DNA of 64,000 bases from Candidatus Abawacabacteria bacterium (GTDB taxonomy: Bacteria; Patescibacteriota; Gracilibacteria; RBG-16-42-10). The notes under the pieces were generated by a model. It did no database searches and had not been told where the DNA came from. It saw nothing but the letters and a program-made list of their open reading frames with translations. Numbering within the stretch: position 1 is the stretch's first letter; each line of letters opens with the position of its first letter. This document shows positions 8,954 to 57,662 of this stretch, piece by piece. Both the position numbers and the translations under genes were made by a program. Location of the stretch: assembly GCA_016207805.1 (NCBI GenBank), contig JACQZO010000020.1, positions 35,634 through 99,633 of the forward strand. Reading direction: 5' to 3'.

Positions 8954-9253
8954 TCAGTCTAATAACCTTCTAGCAGCAGTGAGATAAGCTTCACTATTTC
9001 TTCTAAAACCAACTTTAATGATAAACACCTCCACCTGTTGTTCCTTCACAGAATAAATCACTCGATAATCTCCCACCTTTAGTGCCCACATATTTTTCAA
9101 ACCATACTTTAATGACTTGCCATAGTGCTTAGGAGCAAAAGGCAGCTTTTTCATAATAGCTTTAAATATTCTCTTTTGGGTGGTCTTATCTAAAACACTT
9201 AAATCTTCTTTCCATACTAACTCATGAAAAGTAATCTGGTATTGCATAATCAA
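8954..9253 (-). CDS. type II toxin, RelE/ParE family
   Basis: 99 aa. Has the LKVGDYRVIYSV..VEVFIIKVGFRRN signature typical of RelE/StbE toxins. Overlaps the upstream antitoxin ORF by 4 nt. Confidence 0.85.
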   Translation of the reverse strand: MIMQYQITFHELVWKEDLSVLDKTTQKRIFKAIMKKLPFAPKHYGKSLKYGLKNMWALKVGDYRVIYSVKEQQVEVFIIKVGFRRNSEAYLTAARRLLD

Positions 9254-9522
9254 GAAAAGATAAGAGCCTGCATTTGCTCAGCAGAGATTTTCTTTCCCTT
9301 CTTTTTTAATCTTTCCTTGGCTAGTATGGCCAGAATAATATCCTCTAACACTTCAAGCTTCTTTTCTTTTTGTTCATAACTTTCAAAGCTTTCCATCACC
9401 CCAATAGGTTTTCCTTTTTGAGTCACTATTACTCTTTTCCCCTCAAGAGCCTTAAAAACCTTCCCCCCTTCACTTCGTAATTCACTAGTACCAACAATCA
9501 CCGCACCATCTGTTGTATACAT
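9250..9522 (-). CDS. type II antitoxin, Phd/YefM-like
   Basis: Best start is MYTTDGAVIVGTSELRS..GKRVIVTQKGKPIGVMESFESYE (Phd/YefM-like N-terminal fold signature). Translationally coupled with the RelE-like ORF. The longer ORF-track start at 9561 is less likely. Confidence 0.75.
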   Translation of the reverse strand: MYTTDGAVIVGTSELRSEGGKVFKALEGKRVIVTQKGKPIGVMESFESYEQKEKKLEVLEDIILAILAKERLKKKGKKISAEQMQALIFS

Positions 9523-15310: not shown

Positions 15311-15342
15311 AATTCTGAATTCAGCATTCAGAATTCAGAATT
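15311..15342 (+). repeat. heptamer tract, CTGAATT class, 3' of member 7 stop
   Basis: aattctg aattcag cattcag aattcag aatt, starting 4 nt after the stop. Confidence 0.8.
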
Positions 15343-15364: not shown

Positions 15365-17071
15365 ATGACTACCTGCAAACAATGTTCTCTACAATTCGAA
15401 GTCACGCCCCAAGACTTAAGTTTCTATGCCAAAGTTTCACCAGTTTTCGCTGGCAAAAAGTATCAAGTTCTAGCCCCCACTCTTTGTCCTGATTGTAGAC
15501 AACAAAGACGCTTGGCATTTCGTAATGAGAGAAAACTCTACAACCGTATTTGTAATATTTGCAAACAGCCTTTCATTTCTATTTATTCTCCAGACAAAGT
15601 CACTGATTCCGGCAAAGCTCTATCAGTATATTGCACCAAATGTTGGTGGAGTGATCAATGGGATCCAATGACTTATGGACAAGAATACGATTTTTCTCAG
15701 ACATTCTTTAGTCAATGGAAAAAGTTATGGCAAACGATGCCTAGATTAGGTCTGTTGGTGTGGGGAGATGGCATTAATAGTGACTACACTCATGATGTAA
15801 TCAAATGCGTGAACAGTTATTTAATTTTTGATGGAGAACAAGCCCAGGAATGTTTTTATGGGGAAACATTTCATACCATTAAGGATTGCGTAGATTTCCT
15901 CAAGTTGCGCAGCTGCGAACTTGGTTATGAGATTATCGATTGTATTAACTGTTACAATATTCAGCACAGTCGTTTTTCCGAAAACTGTAGTGATTCCTAT
16001 TTCTTATTAGATTGTATTGGTTGCAAAAATTGCTTTGGTTGTGTCAATTTAAGACAAAAAGAATATTACATATTTAACCAACCTTTTAGCAAAGAAGAGT
16101 ATCAAAAATTTATTACCAACGCTCAATTAGGAAACTACCAAAATCGTGAAGCATGGAGAATGCAAGCAGAAACTTTTTTTGCCAGCCAACCAAAGAAAGC
16201 GTATCGGGGAAGAATGAATGAAAATAGTACCGGCAATAGCATTAACAACTGTCAAAACGCCTTCGATTCATTTGATTCTAATGGTCTCCGTGATAGTCGT
16301 TTTTGCACCAATATTATGTTGAGTGCGACTGATTGTTATGATGTAGACACGTGGGGAGAGAGTACTTCATTGATTTATAATTCTGCCATGGTTGGTCTAG
16401 GTAGTCAGCAAATGATTGGCGGTTATTATACTTGCTTTGATAGTCATGATATTTACCATTCCGCTTTTTGTTGGCAAGGATGCAATAATTTATTTGGTTG
16501 TGTCGGTCTAAAACATAAAGAATTTTGCATTTTAAACAAACAATACTCTAAAGAACAGTACCTTGAGCTAGTGCCCAAGATTATCGAAAATATGCAGAGC
16601 AATGGTGAATGGGCAGAATTTTTCCCTCCAATGCTTTCCGCCTTTGGTTACAATGAAACCGTAGCTAACGAATACTATCCTCTTTCCCGGGAAGAAGCAC
16701 TAAAAAAAGGCTTTTTGTGGAGTGATTATGAAGCACCAAAGCCTGCAGTAAAAAAGACTCTTAAAGCTGCAGAGTTGCCAATAGATATACAGTCGGTGAG
16801 TGATGAGATCTTAGATTATGCCATTGTTTGTGAAGTCAGTGGTAAGTTATTTCGTATTATCAAAGCAGAGTTAAACTTTTACCGACAACATAATATCCCA
16901 TTGCCACATCGTCACCCAGACCAAAGACATAGTGACAGAATGCAACTTCGCCCACCACGAAAGCTATGGTCCAGAAAGTGTATGCAATGTCAGATGGCAG
17001 TATCGAGTCCTTATGGTACAGATAGACCGGAGAGAATTTTATGTGAAAATTGCTATTCAGATGAATTATAG
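15365..17071 (+). CDS. Cys-rich family, array member 8 (N1+ N2+ C1- C2+)
   Basis: 568 aa. CKQCS..CPDCRQQRRLAFRNE..RICNICKQPFISIY..VYCTKCWW. C-module VCEVSGKLFRIIKAEL..RHPDQRH and KCMQCQ..ILCENCY. Sister of member 3. Confidence 0.9.
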   Translation: MTTCKQCSLQFEVTPQDLSFYAKVSPVFAGKKYQVLAPTLCPDCRQQRRLAFRNERKLYNRICNICKQPFISIYSPDKVTDSGKALSVYCTKCWWSDQWDPMTYGQEYDFSQTFFSQWKKLWQTMPRLGLLVWGDGINSDYTHDVIKCVNSYLIFDGEQAQECFYGETFHTIKDCVDFLKLRSCELGYEIIDCINCYNIQHSRFSENCSDSYFLLDCIGCKNCFGCVNLRQKEYYIFNQPFSKEEYQKFITNAQLGNYQNREAWRMQAETFFASQPKKAYRGRMNENSTGNSINNCQNAFDSFDSNGLRDSRFCTNIMLSATDCYDVDTWGESTSLIYNSAMVGLGSQQMIGGYYTCFDSHDIYHSAFCWQGCNNLFGCVGLKHKEFCILNKQYSKEQYLELVPKIIENMQSNGEWAEFFPPMLSAFGYNETVANEYYPLSREEALKKGFLWSDYEAPKPAVKKTLKAAELPIDIQSVSDEILDYAIVCEVSGKLFRIIKAELNFYRQHNIPLPHRHPDQRHSDRMQLRPPRKLWSRKCMQCQMAVSSPYGTDRPERILCENCYSDEL

Positions 17072-20503: not shown

Positions 20504-21247
20504 ATGCAGGATTTTTTTATCATTGATGATGTCAAAGTGTTTGGGCGAAAAGTAGATGATGTGGCAATCAGAGATATCGATAATATCGTGATTACTCAAG
20601 AGAGCTTATTACATGTGGTAAGACACTTCTCACAACTTAGTCAACAAAGCAGAAAAAGTTTATTAGAGAAAAAGCATGATACTGAAAGGCAGATAGAAGT
20701 TACGGAAAAAATGATCGATGAATTGCTGCATACTGCTGGCTCCAAATTTCATCCTCAATTACAAGATTTGCATTACGTACTTTCATGCTTACTTAGCTAT
20801 ACTAAAGGACATGTTACTGCTGGCCTTAAGGCTCCTTGGATAGAGTTTTCTTCTTTGCCAGGAGAATACTATACAGAGATTCATTTCACTATTACATCTG
20901 AACAAAAAGAAGAGTTAGGACTATCACAAGACGAATTCATAGGTACACTAGGAGCTGTACCAATCAATGAAGAAAATATCGCTTTTGTTCAGCCAGAACA
21001 AAGAGGAGCAGGAGATAAAGCTGATGATATTATTGTGAATATAATTAAAGAATTAGATCCACCACTGACTGATACCATTACTATCGGCTTAGCAAAAAAC
21101 CCTGAAACATTAGTAGTACGACTAACTACTATCTTTACTTCCGATGGCAAGTTTTCGCCGCTATTTCCTAATGCCGAAAAGCAGTCACCAGAGGAGTTTG
21201 CCTATAATAAACAATGGTGGGAACAATACGCCTTTTTTAAGAGCTGA
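20504..21247 (+). CDS. hypothetical protein
   Basis: 247 aa ORF between members 9 and 10. No recognisable motif. Its stop codon lies inside an AGAGCTR heptamer tract. Confidence 0.6.
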   Translation: MQDFFIIDDVKVFGRKVDDVAIRDIDNIVITQESLLHVVRHFSQLSQQSRKSLLEKKHDTERQIEVTEKMIDELLHTAGSKFHPQLQDLHYVLSCLLSYTKGHVTAGLKAPWIEFSSLPGEYYTEIHFTITSEQKEELGLSQDEFIGTLGAVPINEENIAFVQPEQRGAGDKADDIIVNIIKELDPPLTDTITIGLAKNPETLVVRLTTIFTSDGKFSPLFPNAEKQSPEEFAYNKQWWEQYAFFKS

Positions 21248-21272
21248 GAGCTAAGAGCTAAATGCTAAGAGG
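21241..21272 (+). repeat. heptamer tract, AGAGCTR class, overlapping the stop of the 20504-21247 ORF
   Basis: gagctga gagctaa gagctaa atgctaa gagg. Confidence 0.8.
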
Positions 21273-27488: not shown

Positions 27489-27514
27489 ATACAGAGTAGT
27501 CGATTCCAGATTCA

Positions 27515-27547
27515 TTTATAATTTGTAATTCGTAATTTGTAATTAAT
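27515..27547 (+). repeat. heptamer tract, GTAATTY class, directly 5' of member 13 start
   Basis: tttataa tttgtaa ttcgtaa tttgtaa ttaat, then ATG. Confidence 0.85.
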
Positions 27548-29233
27548 ATGACCCAATCCTGTAAACATTGCCAACAAAGCTTCACCATCACTCAAGATGA
27601 TTTAAATAAAATCGCTCATCTTTCCCCTACTATTGCAGGTATTAAATTAACTCTACCACCACCGAAACTTTGTCCTGAATGTCGCAAACAAAGAAGAGCA
27701 ACCTATAGGAATGAACGGAAGCTCTATCACAGGAAATGTAATCATTGCCAGAAAGAAATTATTTCTGTCTATGCACCAGAAAAACCTTACAATGTCTTCT
27801 GTCTCACTTGTTGGTGGGATGACAAACATAATCCTGCTGATTATGGTCAAGAGTTCGACTTCAGTAGACCTTTCTTTGCTCAATATGATGAATTACTTAA
27901 GAAAGTCCCGCTACCAGCTTTAATTTCTTCGCCTGATGCTGAAGAAAATAATTGCTCGTATATCAACTATGCCGGTAATAGCAAAAATTGCTACATGACA
28001 TTTGATGCTGATTTTAATGAAGATTCATATTATTCCAATATCTTGAAACATTCTAAGAATTGCATGGAATGTTCTTCACTGCAGGAATCTGAATTATGTT
28101 ATGAGACATTAATATCCACGGGTTGTTATCATACCTTCTTTTCTCAAGAACTTACCAATTGCCAAGATTGTTACTTTCTCAAAAACTGTATTGGCTGTCG
28201 TAATTGTTTGCTTTGTGTGAATCTTAACCACAAAGAATATTGCATCATGAATAAGCAATACACTAAGGAACAATACTTAGAGTATATGAGCAAGATAGAT
28301 TTGGGTGATCGCAAGACTATTCAAGCATTAGAACAAGAACTAGAAAAACTAGCGGCATCAGCACCTCATAAGTTTATTCATGGCGTAAACTTAGAGAATT
28401 GTACCGGAGACTATATGGTCAACGCTAAAAATTGCCAGAATTGTTTTATGGTGGGAAATGTAGAAGATCTCACCTACTGTGACTCACTTTATCGAGCAAA
28501 AGACTGCATGGATGTCTCCTCCTTTGGCGAACAATTAGAGCGCGCCTATGAAACTGTTTCCAGCGGTATCAATGCCTACGAATTACAATTTTGCCAAGTT
28601 TGCGCCACCAATACCTATAATCTTCAATACAATTATGGCTCCAGAAATAGTAAAAATAGCTTTGGCTCAGTAGCCCTAAAATCGAATGAATACTGCATTC
28701 TTAATAAGCAATATACAAAAGACACATATGAAAAGTTAGTGTCTAAGATTGTTGAGCATATGAAGAGCACTGGTGAATGGGGTGAATATTTCCCGATGTC
28801 TATTTCTCCCTATGCTTACAATGAAACAGTAGCCAATGAATTCTTTCCCCTAAGCAAAGAACAAGCTCTTAAACTGGACGCTACCTGGAAAGAAGAAGAT
28901 CTGATGAATCGTTATGAAGGCCCTAAAGTGGTAGTGCCAGAAAATATCAAAGATGTTTCGGAGCAAGTTTTAAAACAGATACTTACCTGCGATAAATGTG
29001 GCAAAAACTATAAACTCATTGCCCAAGAATTAAAGTTTTATCAAGAACAAAAACTACCTTTACCAATATGGTGCTTCAATTGTCGTCATGAAAAAAGGAT
29101 GAGCAAACGAAACCCACAACATTTATGGGATCGCAATTGTAGCCAGTGCAATACCTCATTAAAGACTAGCTACTCTCCTAATCGCCCAGAAAAAATCTAC
29201 TGCGAGCCTTGCTACCAAAAACTAGTTTTCTAA
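27548..29233 (+). CDS. Cys-rich family, array member 13 (N1+ N2+ C1+ C2+), partial Cys erosion in core
   Basis: 561 aa, collinear with member 2 (PDAEE.NC.Y.N.AG, EDLTYCDSL, GSRNS). Several core Cys are replaced (SFGSVALKSNEYC versus CFGCIALKSNEYC; YETLISTGCYHTFFSQELTNC versus YQCVDCTQCYNLLYSQDCANC). Confidence 0.9.
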   Translation: MTQSCKHCQQSFTITQDDLNKIAHLSPTIAGIKLTLPPPKLCPECRKQRRATYRNERKLYHRKCNHCQKEIISVYAPEKPYNVFCLTCWWDDKHNPADYGQEFDFSRPFFAQYDELLKKVPLPALISSPDAEENNCSYINYAGNSKNCYMTFDADFNEDSYYSNILKHSKNCMECSSLQESELCYETLISTGCYHTFFSQELTNCQDCYFLKNCIGCRNCLLCVNLNHKEYCIMNKQYTKEQYLEYMSKIDLGDRKTIQALEQELEKLAASAPHKFIHGVNLENCTGDYMVNAKNCQNCFMVGNVEDLTYCDSLYRAKDCMDVSSFGEQLERAYETVSSGINAYELQFCQVCATNTYNLQYNYGSRNSKNSFGSVALKSNEYCILNKQYTKDTYEKLVSKIVEHMKSTGEWGEYFPMSISPYAYNETVANEFFPLSKEQALKLDATWKEEDLMNRYEGPKVVVPENIKDVSEQVLKQILTCDKCGKNYKLIAQELKFYQEQKLPLPIWCFNCRHEKRMSKRNPQHLWDRNCSQCNTSLKTSYSPNRPEKIYCEPCYQKLVF

Positions 29234-29273
29234 TTTCTAATTTGTAATTCGTAATCCGTAATTTGTAATTCTT
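29231..29273 (+). repeat. heptamer tract, GTAATTY class, forming the whole member 13/14 spacer
   Basis: taatttc taatttg taattcg taatccg taatttg taattct t, then ATG. The first unit includes the member 13 TAA stop. Confidence 0.85.
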
Positions 29274-30929
29274 ATGACCACCAATTGCCATCAATGCCAA
29301 AATGCTTTCACGCATACTCCCGAAGACCAAAAGTTCTATACATTATTTAATGTACCAGCTCCTAAGACTTGTCCTAGTTGTCGTATGCATCGCCGCATGA
29401 TGGAACGTAATGTCAAAAGTCTTTACTACCGCAAATGTGATCTCACTGGAGAGCAAATTATTTCACAGTATCATAGTAATGTGCCATTTCCTGTCTATCA
29501 AACAAGTGCTTGGTGGGGAGACGGCTGGGATGCTAGTCAATATGGACAAGACTTTGATTTCTCTCGCCCATTTTTTGAGCAATTGAAAGAGTTACAAAAT
29601 AAAGTACCTCGTGTTGCTCTATGGATTATTCCCACCCTAGAAAATAGTGATTTCACTAATAATACAGGCTATTTAAAGAACTGTTATTTGATCATGGAAA
29701 GTGATTACGACGAAGATTGCTACTATTCCAATTTACTTAAGAAGTCTAAAAATCTCTGTGATTGTTCAGTCTGTTATGAAGCTGAGCTTTGCTATGAATG
29801 TATTGATTGCCAAAACTGCCATGAACTGCGTTATTCACAAGATTGTAAAGGCTGCCAAAATAGTTGGTTCTTAAACAATTGCCAAAGCTGTAAGGATTGC
29901 ATTGGTTGTATCAATCAACGCCATAAGCAATACATGATTTTCAATCAGCAATATAGCAAAGATGAATATGAAAAAATCAAAGCTGAATTAGCTTTACACA
30001 CTAGAAGCGGGGTAAAAAAAGTAGCCGAAAAAGCAAAAACACTTTTCTTATTGCATCCTTATAAAAATGTTAGCAGTGAAAAAGTAGAGAACTGCATTGG
30101 TGACCATCTCTATAATGCTAAAGATTGTTACTTCTGCTTTGATTGTAAAGACATCGAAGATGCCCGTTACTGTACCAAACTTTCTTTGCAGGTAAAAACC
30201 TGTATGGATTATAGCTCTTGGGGCGACAAAGCTGAGCTGGTTTATCAATGTAGCTCCAGTGGCGATGGTGCTTACAATATCAAGTTCTGCACCACCTGTA
30301 CCACCAATGTCCGGGACTTAGAATATTGCGATCTCTGTACTTCATCATCTGATTTATTTGGTTGTGTAGGTATGAAGAAAAAACAATATTGTATTCTTAA
30401 TAAACAATACTCGAAGGATGAATACTTTGCGCTCAAAGCAAAAGTTATCGAACACATGAAAGTAACCGGTGAGTATGGAGAATACTTCCCTGCGGCTAAT
30501 TGTCCCTTCGCCCACAATGAAACCATGGCCCAAGACTTTTTTCCTTTAACTAAAGAAGAAGCACTAGCTCAAGGATATCGCTGGCATGATGAAGACACGA
30601 CCAATCGTTACCAAGGCACTCAAGTAACGGTACCTGAAACCAGTGAAGAAGTTTCTGATGATATCACTAAGCATATTCTTACTTGTGCTACTTGTGGTAA
30701 GAACTACCGTTTCATCATCCAAGAATTACGACTATATCGTCAATTAGGAGTACCACCACCAGTACAATGTTTCGATTGTCGCCACAAAAGAAGAATCAAT
30801 GCGCGCACCCCATTTCAAATTTGGCAAAGAGATTGTGCTAAGTGTCAGCAAAAAATGTACAGCAGCTATGCCCCAAACAGACCAGAAATTGTTTACTGTG
30901 AACAGTGTTATCAAGAAACGGTTTATTAA
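29274..30929 (+). CDS. Cys-rich family, array member 14 (N1+ N2- C1+ C2+)
   Basis: 551 aa, 42 Cys by my count. CHQCQ..CPSCRMHRR..RKCDLTGEQIIS. Core ELCYECIDCQNCHELRYSQDCKGCQNSWFLNNCQSCKDCIGC. VRDLEYC. GEYGEYFP. C-module CATCGKNYRFIIQEL..CFDCRHKRR..DCAKC..VYCEQCY. Confidence 0.9.
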   Translation: MTTNCHQCQNAFTHTPEDQKFYTLFNVPAPKTCPSCRMHRRMMERNVKSLYYRKCDLTGEQIISQYHSNVPFPVYQTSAWWGDGWDASQYGQDFDFSRPFFEQLKELQNKVPRVALWIIPTLENSDFTNNTGYLKNCYLIMESDYDEDCYYSNLLKKSKNLCDCSVCYEAELCYECIDCQNCHELRYSQDCKGCQNSWFLNNCQSCKDCIGCINQRHKQYMIFNQQYSKDEYEKIKAELALHTRSGVKKVAEKAKTLFLLHPYKNVSSEKVENCIGDHLYNAKDCYFCFDCKDIEDARYCTKLSLQVKTCMDYSSWGDKAELVYQCSSSGDGAYNIKFCTTCTTNVRDLEYCDLCTSSSDLFGCVGMKKKQYCILNKQYSKDEYFALKAKVIEHMKVTGEYGEYFPAANCPFAHNETMAQDFFPLTKEEALAQGYRWHDEDTTNRYQGTQVTVPETSEEVSDDITKHILTCATCGKNYRFIIQELRLYRQLGVPPPVQCFDCRHKRRINARTPFQIWQRDCAKCQQKMYSSYAPNRPEIVYCEQCYQETVY

Positions 30930-30967
30930 TTCTGAATGCAGAATGCTGAATTCTGAATTTAATTCAG
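30928..30967 (+). repeat. heptamer tract, CTGAATK class, 3' of member 14 stop
   Basis: aattctg aatgcag aatgctg aattctg aatttaa ttcag. Confidence 0.8.
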
Positions 30968-32680: not shown

Positions 32681-32753
32681 AGCAAAGAGCAAAGAGCAAG
32701 GAGCAAAGATATAGCTCCCCTAAACACCTTGCTCTTTGCTCTCTACTCTTTGC
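32681..32753. repeat. heptamer inverted repeat (AGCAAAG class) in the member 15/16 spacer
   Basis: agagcaaagagcaagg (32686-32701) is perfectly complementary to ccttgctctttgctct (32727-32742), a 16 bp stem with a loop of about 25 nt. The arms are AGCAAAG AGCAAAG AGCAAGG AGCAAAG and CCTTGCT CTTTGCT CTCTACT CTTTGC. Confidence 0.85.
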
Positions 32754-32768
32754 ACTTTAACCTATTCT

Positions 32769-34438: not shown

Positions 34439-34489
34439 AGAGCTAAGAGCTGAGAGCGAAGAGCTAAGATCGGCTCACTCTTAGCTCTA
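34439..34489. repeat. heptamer inverted repeat (AGAGCTR arms) in the member 16/17 spacer
   Basis: agagcta agagctg agagcga agagcta agat cggctcac tcttagctcta. Homologous to the 25746-25810 element. Confidence 0.8.
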
Positions 34490-47056: not shown

Positions 47057-47079
47057 AAATATAGTGAAGAAGTCTCCCA

Positions 47080-47114
47080 TTTCTAATTCCTAATTACTAA
47101 TTCACAATTTTCTT
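47080..47114 (+). repeat. heptamer tract, CTAATTN variant of the leader class, directly 5' of the ABC-F start
   Basis: tttctaa ttcctaa ttactaa ttcacaa ttttctt, then GTG. Confidence 0.8.
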
Positions 47115-48539: not shown

Positions 48540-48610
48540 TTAGGTATATAGTGCAATTAGTAAGAGGTATCTCCAACTTAGCATGTTTCCTTATCCTAAT
48601 TCCTTCCATT

Positions 48611-48647
48611 TTCATTTGTAATTCGTAATTAGTAATTCGCAATTGTT
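48611..48647 (+). repeat. heptamer tract, GTAATTY class, directly 5' of msrB start
   Basis: ttcattt gtaattc gtaatta gtaattc gcaattg tt, then ATG. Confidence 0.85.
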
Positions 48648-49477: not shown

Positions 49478-49525
49478 ACTCAATACACAATAAGGACTAG
49501 CAAATCTTTGTCCCATTACTTGTGC

Positions 49526-49563
49526 CTTCATTTGTAATTCGTAATTCATAATTTGTAATTTCT
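49526..49563 (+). repeat. heptamer tract, GTAATTY class, directly 5' of nitroreductase start
   Basis: cttcatt tgtaatt cgtaatt cataatt tgtaatt tct, then ATG. Confidence 0.85.
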
Positions 49564-56913: not shown

Positions 56914-56947
56914 AGAAATTACAAATTACGAATTACAAATTCCAAAT
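56914..56947 (-). repeat. heptamer tract, GTAATTY class, directly 5' of the minus-strand PGM/PMM start
   Basis: The minus strand reads catttgg aatttgt aattcgt aatttgt aatttct ATG. Same sequence and orientation relative to the gene as the plus-strand leader tracts. Confidence 0.85.
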
Positions 56948-56989
56948 GGTCGGAACAAATAAGGAAGGAAATTATAGAAACATATTTCC

Positions 56990-57024
56990 CTAAAAAACGG
57001 AAGGATGAACTGGTTCATCCTTCC
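56990..57024 (-). terminator. intrinsic terminator after the TPR/holB-like genes
   Basis: The minus strand reads GGAAGGATGAAC CA GTTCATCCTTCC G TTTTTT: a 12 bp perfect palindromic stem (56999-57024) followed by a U run. Confidence 0.7.
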
Positions 57025-57040
57025 ATTTTCCCTGAGCCCT

Positions 57041-57071
57041 ATTTGTAATTTGGCATTTGTAATTCGTAATT
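57041..57071. repeat. GTAATTY heptamer tract, inverted partner of 56914-56947
   Basis: atttgta atttggc atttgta attcgta att abuts the stop of the TPR ORF. Together with 56914-56947 it brackets about 90 nt that contain the terminator. Confidence 0.8.
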
Positions 57072-57662
57072 TCACCGACTACGGTGAATATCCTGATAAA
57101 TTTCTCTCGCTTTATCATGTTGTTTCAGCTTGCGATATGTTTTGGCCAAAAGTTCTAAATAGTCTCTACGTCCCGGATCTAATTGCAAAAGCTGCTGCAC
57201 AGTTCTGACCGCATCTTCATAATGACCTGCTACTAACTGGATAGAAACAGCTTGTTCCAACCACACCGCTTCTCGAGGGAAATGAAGGATTAATTTATTA
57301 ATCACTACCAAAGCACGCATATAGTCCCTTAGGGCGGTATAGGCTTCAGCTAGCAATACATGAATACGAATATAATGATCTGCAGGAATTTCACGTTTCA
57401 AAGCTTCTTCCAAATATTTTACTACCTTACGATAATCTTTCTTAGCATTAGCTTTTTCTGCTAATTCCGAAAGCTCACCAAAACCCATTTGATGGAGATT
57501 GCTTTGAAACATCCTTTCCAATGAAATCGTCTGTTCCAAAATTTGATCAATAGGTGCAAATGTTTCTTCAGCAGCCAAACGTGTTCCCGTGGAATAAAGG
57601 AATAGTCTGCGGCCAATAATAGCTAATGCTAAAAGCCATGAGATAAATGCTATATAAACCAT
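57072..57662 (-). CDS. TPR-repeat protein with N-terminal membrane anchor
   Basis: 196 aa. Hydrophobic N terminus IAFISWLLALAIIG, then TPR-like helical repeats (YRKVVKYLEEAL, LLAEAYTALRDYMRAL, GHYEDAVRTVQQLLQLDP). Confidence 0.65.
   Translation of the reverse strand: MVYIAFISWLLALAIIGRRLFLYSTGTRLAAEETFAPIDQILEQTISLERMFQSNLHQMGFGELSELAEKANAKKDYRKVVKYLEEALKREIPADHYIRIHVLLAEAYTALRDYMRALVVINKLILHFPREAVWLEQAVSIQLVAGHYEDAVRTVQQLLQLDPGRRDYLELLAKTYRKLKQHDKAREIYQDIHRSR

Follow-up and report, generated by a model that had tools for sequence, protein, structure and literature searches.

What does a tandem heptamer do directly before the start codons of genes that have no function in common? The question is raised by a 64,000-nucleotide (nt) stretch of a Candidatus Abawacabacteria genome (contig JACQZO010000020.1, positions 35,634 to 99,633; C16:35634-99633 in our numbering), hereafter the window, in which tracts of the repeat GTAATTY stand immediately upstream of several genes. 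A first-pass annotation of the window had named six such sites and read them as a shared, orientation-specific leader. Here the tracts are followed through the whole 1.23-Mb genome (G000; 28 contigs, 40% G+C) and into relatives, namely a congener (G001), a sister genus of the same family (G007), a member of the same class (G049) and members of two other families of the phylum, G035 and G130, the latter showing a GGAGG Shine-Dalgarno (SD) motif. The MutS protein of G000 has its nearest match, at 42%, in a Candidatus Peregrinibacteria metagenome-assembled genome. We find that this genome has several families of inverted-repeat cassettes armed with heptamers, and that the GTAATTY tract is an arm of the most abundant one. 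We propose tentatively, at a probability of roughly 0.45, that the transcribed arm serves as a G-poor, weakly structured and stop-rich leader that works without an SD sequence.

Position, polarity and composition of the tracts

Tracts were detected as at least three units with at most one core mismatch per unit, a rule that by itself inflates the purity of the core. G000 holds 56 tracts of GTAATTN, 37 with four units, 13 with three and 6 with five or six. A sense ATG lies within 11 nt of 34 of the 56, and within 1-5 nt of 28; by the same criterion only three tracts are start-adjacent on their antisense side. When tracts were placed at random in intergenic DNA, 3.7 +/- 1.9 were start-adjacent in sense, and the highest number reached in 1000 trials was 12. 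This key count was redone without gene calls, accepting any sense ATG that opens an open reading frame (ORF) of at least 40 codons, while the other gene-based counts rest on our own greedy ORF caller (1140 ORFs, 90% of the genome). The gap to the start is most often 2 nt (n=14), followed by 4 nt (n=7) and 3 nt (n=5), with other values scattered. A genome-wide search for orientation and start distance had been set by the first-pass annotation as the test that could refute it. The outcome strongly favours its claim of a shared, orientation-specific element before unrelated genes. These genes, about 3% of all genes in G000, are mixed housekeeping genes without a common functional theme, among them those for L19, L28, SufS, SufU, SufC, DnaX, FtsA, GrpE and pyruvate kinase; SufS, SufU and SufC lie in one gene row, with one arm apiece.

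All six named sites are present as described, with the tract just before the start codon as read from the sequence and the genes identified by Pfam (Table 1). A two-unit pattern has 16 matches in the window, compared with 0.25 expected from shuffles. The tract-to-start gap is 2 nt at five of the six sites and 4 nt at the variant arm of the ABC-F gene, whose GTG start is backed by an ortholog alignment from residue 1. Before the fourteenth member of an array of Cys-rich paralogs, six units do fill the whole 40-nt spacer (29230-29271), as had been noted, and the first unit holds the stop codon of paralog 13 (TAA, 29231-29233). A seventh tract of the window (57041-57072, plus strand) had been missed; it runs in the opposite sense to its neighbour and abuts a stop codon.

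Within the unit, the six-base core GTAATT is near-invariant, and the seventh base is split about evenly between C and T, apart from some A and G. Tract length has a narrow distribution with its mode at four units. The 5' flank is also conserved in G000, being about 80% pyrimidine at -16 to -6 and continuing as C-A-T-T-Y, in which the A is present at 95%; in G001 and G007, too, the tracts follow a similar C-rich-ATTY flank. As 7 is coprime to 3, three units put stops in all frames: the sense tract has TAA in all three, and the antisense tract (RAATTAC) is stop-free and open in all three. Coding DNA of G000 and G001 is about 70% identical, yet the two genomes share tracts at ftsA, at a gene at C9 4464, at rpmB and at a tRNA-Leu gene. 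Two of the orthologous tract pairs have the same length, and in these 46 of 48 core positions and 2 of 8 seventh positions are identical, a pattern that fits selection on the core.

The first-pass annotation also stressed that the tract genes lack a purine-rich SD. This is true of them, but it is a property of the whole genome and hence not special to them: GGAG, GAGG and AGGA are not enriched before starts genome-wide, G makes up 9-14% at -15 to -1, and T occupies -1 in 63% of genes. The 16S rRNA of G000 nonetheless ends ...GGATCACCTCCTTTC (CCTCCTT), with the CCTCC tail kept. In ordinary genes, TATAAT-like boxes are most frequent 25-30 nt upstream of the ATG, a distance that implies very short leaders without SD. 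The suggestion that the tract makes a poorly structured leader agrees with folding predictions, the minimum free energy of the region from -40 to +20 being -3.0 kcal/mol for tract genes vs -6.3 kcal/mol for the others (p = 6e-9).

Cassette anatomy and PF05635 genes

All seven PF05635 genes of G000 (7/7; a four-helix-bundle family like the 23S rRNA intervening sequence (IVS) proteins and Avd) sit between inverted heptamer arrays. Each arm pair belongs to a different heptamer family, and one pair is GTAATTY. The gene that it encloses (C7 64969-65322) has an antisense arm at 64881-64911 and a sense arm at 65314-65345. The left arm doubles as leader for the adjacent leftward gene, whose ATG is 4 nt away, and in G001, where the ortholog is 59% identical, the right arm is kept. 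Other outward-facing GTAATTY pairs contain no ORF and fill several stop-to-start gaps, in which they are predicted to fold as long stems. The window has one such cassette (56916-57072), between a TPR gene and the PGM/PMM gene. On the gene strand it runs from the TPR stop TGA through the antisense arm, an 11-bp hairpin with a T run, a TATAAT box, a C/U-rich stretch, CATTT, the sense arm and 'ct' to the PGM ATG, and in the predicted fold its arm 57041-57072 pairs with 56916-56947. The TPR-PGM gap is 158 nt with the cassette in G000 vs 11 nt in G001, whose PGM gene has no tract. Outward -10 boxes lie 25-33 nt before the arm both here and at C7 64880. The TATAAT box of the PGM cassette would be a promoter -10 on direct reading; a consensus scan called no full -35/-10 pair at this box.

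A complete cassette is made of two outward-facing arms around a PF05635 gene or a short core. Most copies are a single arm, consisting of a C/U-rich stretch of ~12-25 nt followed by CATTY-(GTAATTN)3-6, with the tract ending 1-5 nt before the next start codon. According to our own partner search, 42 of the 56 tracts are single arms, 22 of these being start-adjacent vs 6 stop-adjacent. All-against-all BLAST of the 125-nt flanks of G000 tracts found partner tracts to be the only shared sequence and no longer common element. As the tracts share nothing beyond themselves, no recent common mobile copy is indicated.

GTAATTY is not the only heptamer of this genome. Tandem Repeats Finder (TRF) reports 245 arrays of period 7, far above periods 6 or 8, of which 181 are mostly intergenic, and these form many heptamer families. 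The AAGAGCT, AAAATCT and AATGCTG families begin at most 8 nt after stop codons, in the stop-carrying orientation. Between the rRNA operon and a surface-protein-like gene, upstream of 16S, a hairpin is enclosed by inverted AATTCTG/CAGAATT arrays (L001, C15 ~16780-16950). At C27 9660-10103, GTAATTY arms face inward around a 127-aa gene, VOC/glyoxalase-like by eye; the mRNA of this gene would carry complementary 5' and 3' ends.

Table 1. Heptamer tracts, cassette parts, PF05635 genes and further period-7 arrays in the window (window coordinates)
Feature	Coordinates	Strand	Composition and context
Cys-rich paralog 13 (array member 13)	27513..27547, tract 27518-27545	+	CATTT + ATAATTT GTAATTC GTAATTT GTAATTA + 'at', then ATG 27548; single arm
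Cys-rich paralog 14 (array member 14)	29230..29273, tract 29230-29271	+	CTAATTT CTAATTT GTAATTC GTAATCC GTAATTT GTAATTC + 'tt', then ATG 29274
ABC-F	47078..47114, tract 47083-47110	+	CATTT + CTAATTC CTAATTA CTAATTC ACAATTT + 'tctt', then GTG 47115; CTAATTN variant arm
msrB	48597..48647, tract 48618-48645	+	C/U-rich flank + CATTT + GTAATTC GTAATTA GTAATTC GCAATTG + 'tt', then ATG 48648
Nitroreductase	49513..49563, tract 49534-49561	+	C/U-rich flank + CATTT + GTAATTC GTAATTC ATAATTT GTAATTT + 'ct', then ATG 49564
PGM/PMM	56914..56970, tract 56943-56916	-	C/U-rich stretch, CATTT (56948-56944), GGAATTT GTAATTC GTAATTT GTAATTT + 'ct', then ATG 56913; right half of ORF-less cassette
TATAAT box	56971..56976	-	Putative promoter -10, outward through C/U-rich stretch + arm toward PGM/PMM
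Terminator-like cassette core	56992..57024	-	11-bp G+C-containing hairpin (56999-57024), then GTTTTTT on minus strand
Partner arm	57041..57072	+	Opposite sense; gene strand AAATTAC GAATTAC AAATGCC AAATTAC; abuts TPR gene TGA (57074-57072)
PF05635 gene	37961-38311	+	Among Cys-rich paralogs; region 37854-38343, arms AAGCTAA with ATTTTAG
PF05635 gene	41796-42149	-	Among Cys-rich paralogs; region 41760-42239, arms GAAGACA with GTCTTC
Period-7 arrays (examples)	15311-15342, 21238-21271, 30928-30959, 32681-32758, 34439-34469		TRF

Some further features of the window can be mentioned here. The paralog array contains a ParE-like toxin gene (8954-9247) paired with a Phd/YefM-like antitoxin gene (9250-9522), both on the minus strand. 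Homologs of the Cys-rich paralog in G049 have 12-20 in-frame TGA codons each, and this suggests that TGA may be read as a sense codon in that organism. In an Rfam scan of the window, two tRNAs were the sole matches, with no other known RNA family.

Relatives and known heptamer systems

Hits of the pattern number 84 in G000, 31 in G001, 87 in G007 (none in three congeners of the latter) and 25 in G035. Elsewhere they are sporadic, 22 of 401 genomes of the phylum having hits vs one for the reversed control pattern. Among the 16 tracts examined in G001, six lie within 10 nt of an ATG or a tRNA. Of the window genes, the G001 ortholog of msrB has a 2-unit relic only, and that of ABC-F has no tract, with a different repeat in its place.

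Heptamers before start codons are already known and unexplained, and by analogy GTAATTY appears to be a variant of this phenomenon. Direct repeats of TAACTGA have been described in marine Beggiatoaceae and also in some Cyanobacteria and Bacteroidetes, with S1, Csp and CsrA as proposed readers and a function given as unknown (MacGregor 2015, PMC4679880). Both repeats come as 2-6 direct heptamer copies, mostly intergenic and forward toward the start codon. The largest TAACTGA class ends 1-2 nt upstream of the start, with no ribosome-binding site, in the same way that GTAATTY has a modal gap of 2 nt and no SD. Both carry stops in the forward sense and have open reverse frames, some overlap the end of the upstream ORF, their downstream genes (ribosomal protein genes included) have no common function, and their phyletic distribution is patchy. 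However, GTAATT with its free seventh base is an unrelated heptamer, found in the phylum Patescibacteria, and is thus an analogue and not a member of the same sequence family. It differs also by its conserved C/U-rich-CATTY 5' flank, by its length mode of four units, where TAACTGA declines monotonically with copy number, and by its link to inverted-repeat cassettes and PF05635 genes.

The heptanucleotide repeats of Nostoc, which we take to be short tandemly repeated repetitive (STRR)-type repeats, are similar in position. Around recF/recO of Nostoc PCC 7120, contiguous heptamers were reported within ~30 nt of the starts of at least 12 unrelated genes, and reporter data hint at effects on regulation or translation that were left unresolved there (bioRxiv 10.1101/2022.06.06.494920). 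Their units and lineage are other than ours, and no cassette or PF05635 link has been described for Nostoc.

The cassettes, in turn, resemble the 23S rRNA intervening sequences with an S23p/PF05635 ORF of Coxiella and others (PMC4990558), the stems of which are cut by RNase III. In both cases a PF05635 ORF lies between inverted repeats able to form a long stem, and G000 has an RNase III gene. Unlike those sequences, the GTAATTY cassettes examined all lie between protein or tRNA genes and not in 23S helices, their arms are tandem heptamers, and most copies are single, without ORF or partner.

A putative leader and its alternatives

We propose that the arm would be co-transcribed with the downstream gene and form all or most of its 5' leader or of the intercistronic spacer. 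Such a leader would be G-poor, weakly structured and AUG-free, with TAA in three frames, and 30S subunits could load on it without SD. In a two-armed cassette, the 28-45-bp stem may be an RNase III substrate, by which both messages would be separated. Indirect support for the proposal comes from the outward -10 boxes at two cassettes, from arms situated within gene rows, from the weaker predicted folding of the -40 to +20 region and from the surplus of single arms on the start side. A four-domain S1 gene is present in G000 and encodes the sole classical single-strand RNA binder found. Other candidates were tried and rejected. A cold-shock-domain reader, suggested by the idea of a 7-nt footprint, has no gene in G000, G001, G007 or the rest of the family, and CsrA and Hfq are both absent from G000. 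The 20-member Cys-rich zinc-ribbon paralogs occur in tract-free relatives and are missing from the tract-rich G035. RNase E/G was considered through an S1-domain hit, but this third S1-domain ORF looks like NusA by eye, and no search aimed at RNase E/G, RNase Y or RNase J was made. A leaderless mRNA, or a promoter inside the tract, is at odds with the modal 2-nt gap, which breaks the geometry.

A number of observations weigh against this proposal. For a plain unstructured landing pad there would be no need to fix six bases in each unit, and a conserved core beside a free seventh base could also be produced by ectopic conversion among tracts. The probability of being unpaired at -20 to +10 is predicted to be no different from that of other genes (p = 0.23), and -10-like hexamers are not enriched upstream of tracts (~23 seen vs ~21 expected). 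Eight tracts, among them the one at 57041-57072 in the window, abut the stop codon of a convergent gene vs 3.0 +/- 1.8 expected, and a gap of 4 nt separates the end of another tract from the mature 5' end of tRNA-Leu(GAG), a placement kept in G001. In G007 a distance of 10 nt or less to an ATG or tRNA is seen for only 1-2 of 25 tracts, and most stand 30-80 nt upstream of a co-oriented ORF, embedded in longer repeats, so that co-orientation is conserved and close start adjacency is not. Sites also turn over: about 4 of 10 tract sites of G001 are common to G000, as are 0-1 of 9 sites of G007. The tRNA, convergent-stop and sister-genus placements do not fit a purely translational signal.

Could the tracts be selfish or neutral remnants, that is, the ends of mobile hairpin cassettes of the kind of miniature inverted-repeat transposable elements (MITEs) or IVS, landing or surviving only in the tiny gene junctions of a compact genome, with no benefit for expression? 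Start adjacency would then be a consequence of insertion geometry and of purifying selection on coding DNA. Correia elements of Neisseria are MITEs of this kind, small intergenic inverted-repeat elements with their ends by genes, co-transcribed, with possible outward promoters and hairpins sensitive to RNase III. In G130, the GTAATTY/GTCATTY tracts are likewise the outer ends of the ~60-nt inverted termini of a ~190-bp repeated element, the conserved core of which occurs in both orientations, with at least 12 copies (loci L169-L180, alignment A1). The patchy distribution, the turnover of sites, the TPR-PGM cassette present in G000 and missing in G001, the tracts beside a tRNA gene and stop codons, and downstream genes without a common theme all agree with such an origin. 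We see this as the main rival of the leader proposal, though somewhat less likely. The elements of G000 have no conserved internal core or other sequence shared beyond the tract, in contrast to a MITE, and the length distribution of the tracts is narrow. Moreover, orthologous sites keep the core while the seventh position is saturated, and single arms on the start side exceed those on the stop side by 22 to 6. No target-site duplication or transposase was identified, although neither was searched systematically. A post-transcriptional regulon, in which a sequence-specific factor recognizes GUAAUU every 7 nt, each of its subunits or domains taking one unit, and co-regulates or recruits ribosomes to ~34 genes, would account for six fixed positions, a free seventh one and 3-6 units per tract. 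The PF05635 protein with GTAATTY arms, kept in G000 and G001, is the candidate, and would give concrete form to the repeat-reading protein considered in the first-pass annotation. Avd, for its part, is a nucleic-acid-binding pentamer. PF05635 proteins are homologs of Avd of diversity-generating retroelements (PMC10053308). The family, however, is also found in tract-free relatives, it gave no hit in the tract-rich G130, and the PF05635 genes that have GTAATT-type arms in G035 and in a further genome, G205, belong to another subfamily. With the Csp, CsrA and Hfq candidates absent and the gene set lacking a common function, we regard such a regulon as improbable.

The first-pass annotation had also offered a promoter or UP-like element, either with TTGTAA as -35 and TAATTT as -10 within the repeat or as an AT-rich tract upstream of a promoter. 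A TTGTAA-18 nt-TAATTT arrangement can in fact be read inside a four-unit tract, TTGAC or TATAAT-like boxes come after some tracts of G007, a tRNA gene has a tract before it, and divergent gene pairs have one outward-facing tract per gene. But the geometry appears not to fit. At the modal 2-nt gap, transcription from a -10 in the last unit would begin inside the ORF, and the flank profile of G000 tracts has no conserved -35 upstream. Real promoters of G000 have canonical TATAAT boxes at 25-30 nt upstream of the ATG, tracts are found within tight gene rows (suf, the paralog array), and with respect to candidate -10 boxes they are not placed consistently in G000 and G007. This explanation is quite unlikely in our view. 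Least probable are contingency loci, where slipped-strand events would alter the unit number and thereby switch or tune expression. In Haemophilus, hmw1A is reportedly tuned by heptamer repeats of promoters or leaders, and unit numbers do differ between orthologs of G000 and G001 (4 vs 6 at ftsA, 4 vs 5 at the C9 4464 gene). The arrays are short, however, and they target housekeeping genes. Identical neighbours make up only 29 of the 165 adjacent unit pairs, and likeness of adjacent units at the seventh base shows no excess (56 vs 62.8 +/- 5.9 shuffled), which argues against recent slippage. When metagenomes were scanned for the msrB locus, the length of the tract being allowed to vary, no match was returned.

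It is tempting to go further than the SD-independent leader and to propose that the heptamer-armed cassettes are a so far undescribed class of junction-seeking elements, that the PF05635 protein, Avd-like and oligomeric, reads one heptamer per subunit, and that in SD-independent Patescibacteria dozens of housekeeping genes came to use domesticated start-side arms as the place where ribosomes land. GTAATTY, TAACTGA and the cyanobacterial heptamers would then be one phenomenon with one mechanism. The odds are clearly against this extended proposal being right as a whole.

In summary, heptamers upstream of starts had been reported in Beggiatoaceae and cyanobacteria without a mechanism, and our results add a third lineage, a very distant one, in which the genome is small and SD is not used. 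They also add a selection-like signature of six fixed bases and one free base per unit, and, of the three readers that earlier work had proposed, they exclude Csp and CsrA in G000. The link to PF05635 and IVS-type cassettes supplies a candidate reader and a possible origin. If the arms drive initiation, they would constitute a portable module for SD-independent ribosome entry; if they do not, selfish junction elements would be shaping gene starts in compact genomes.

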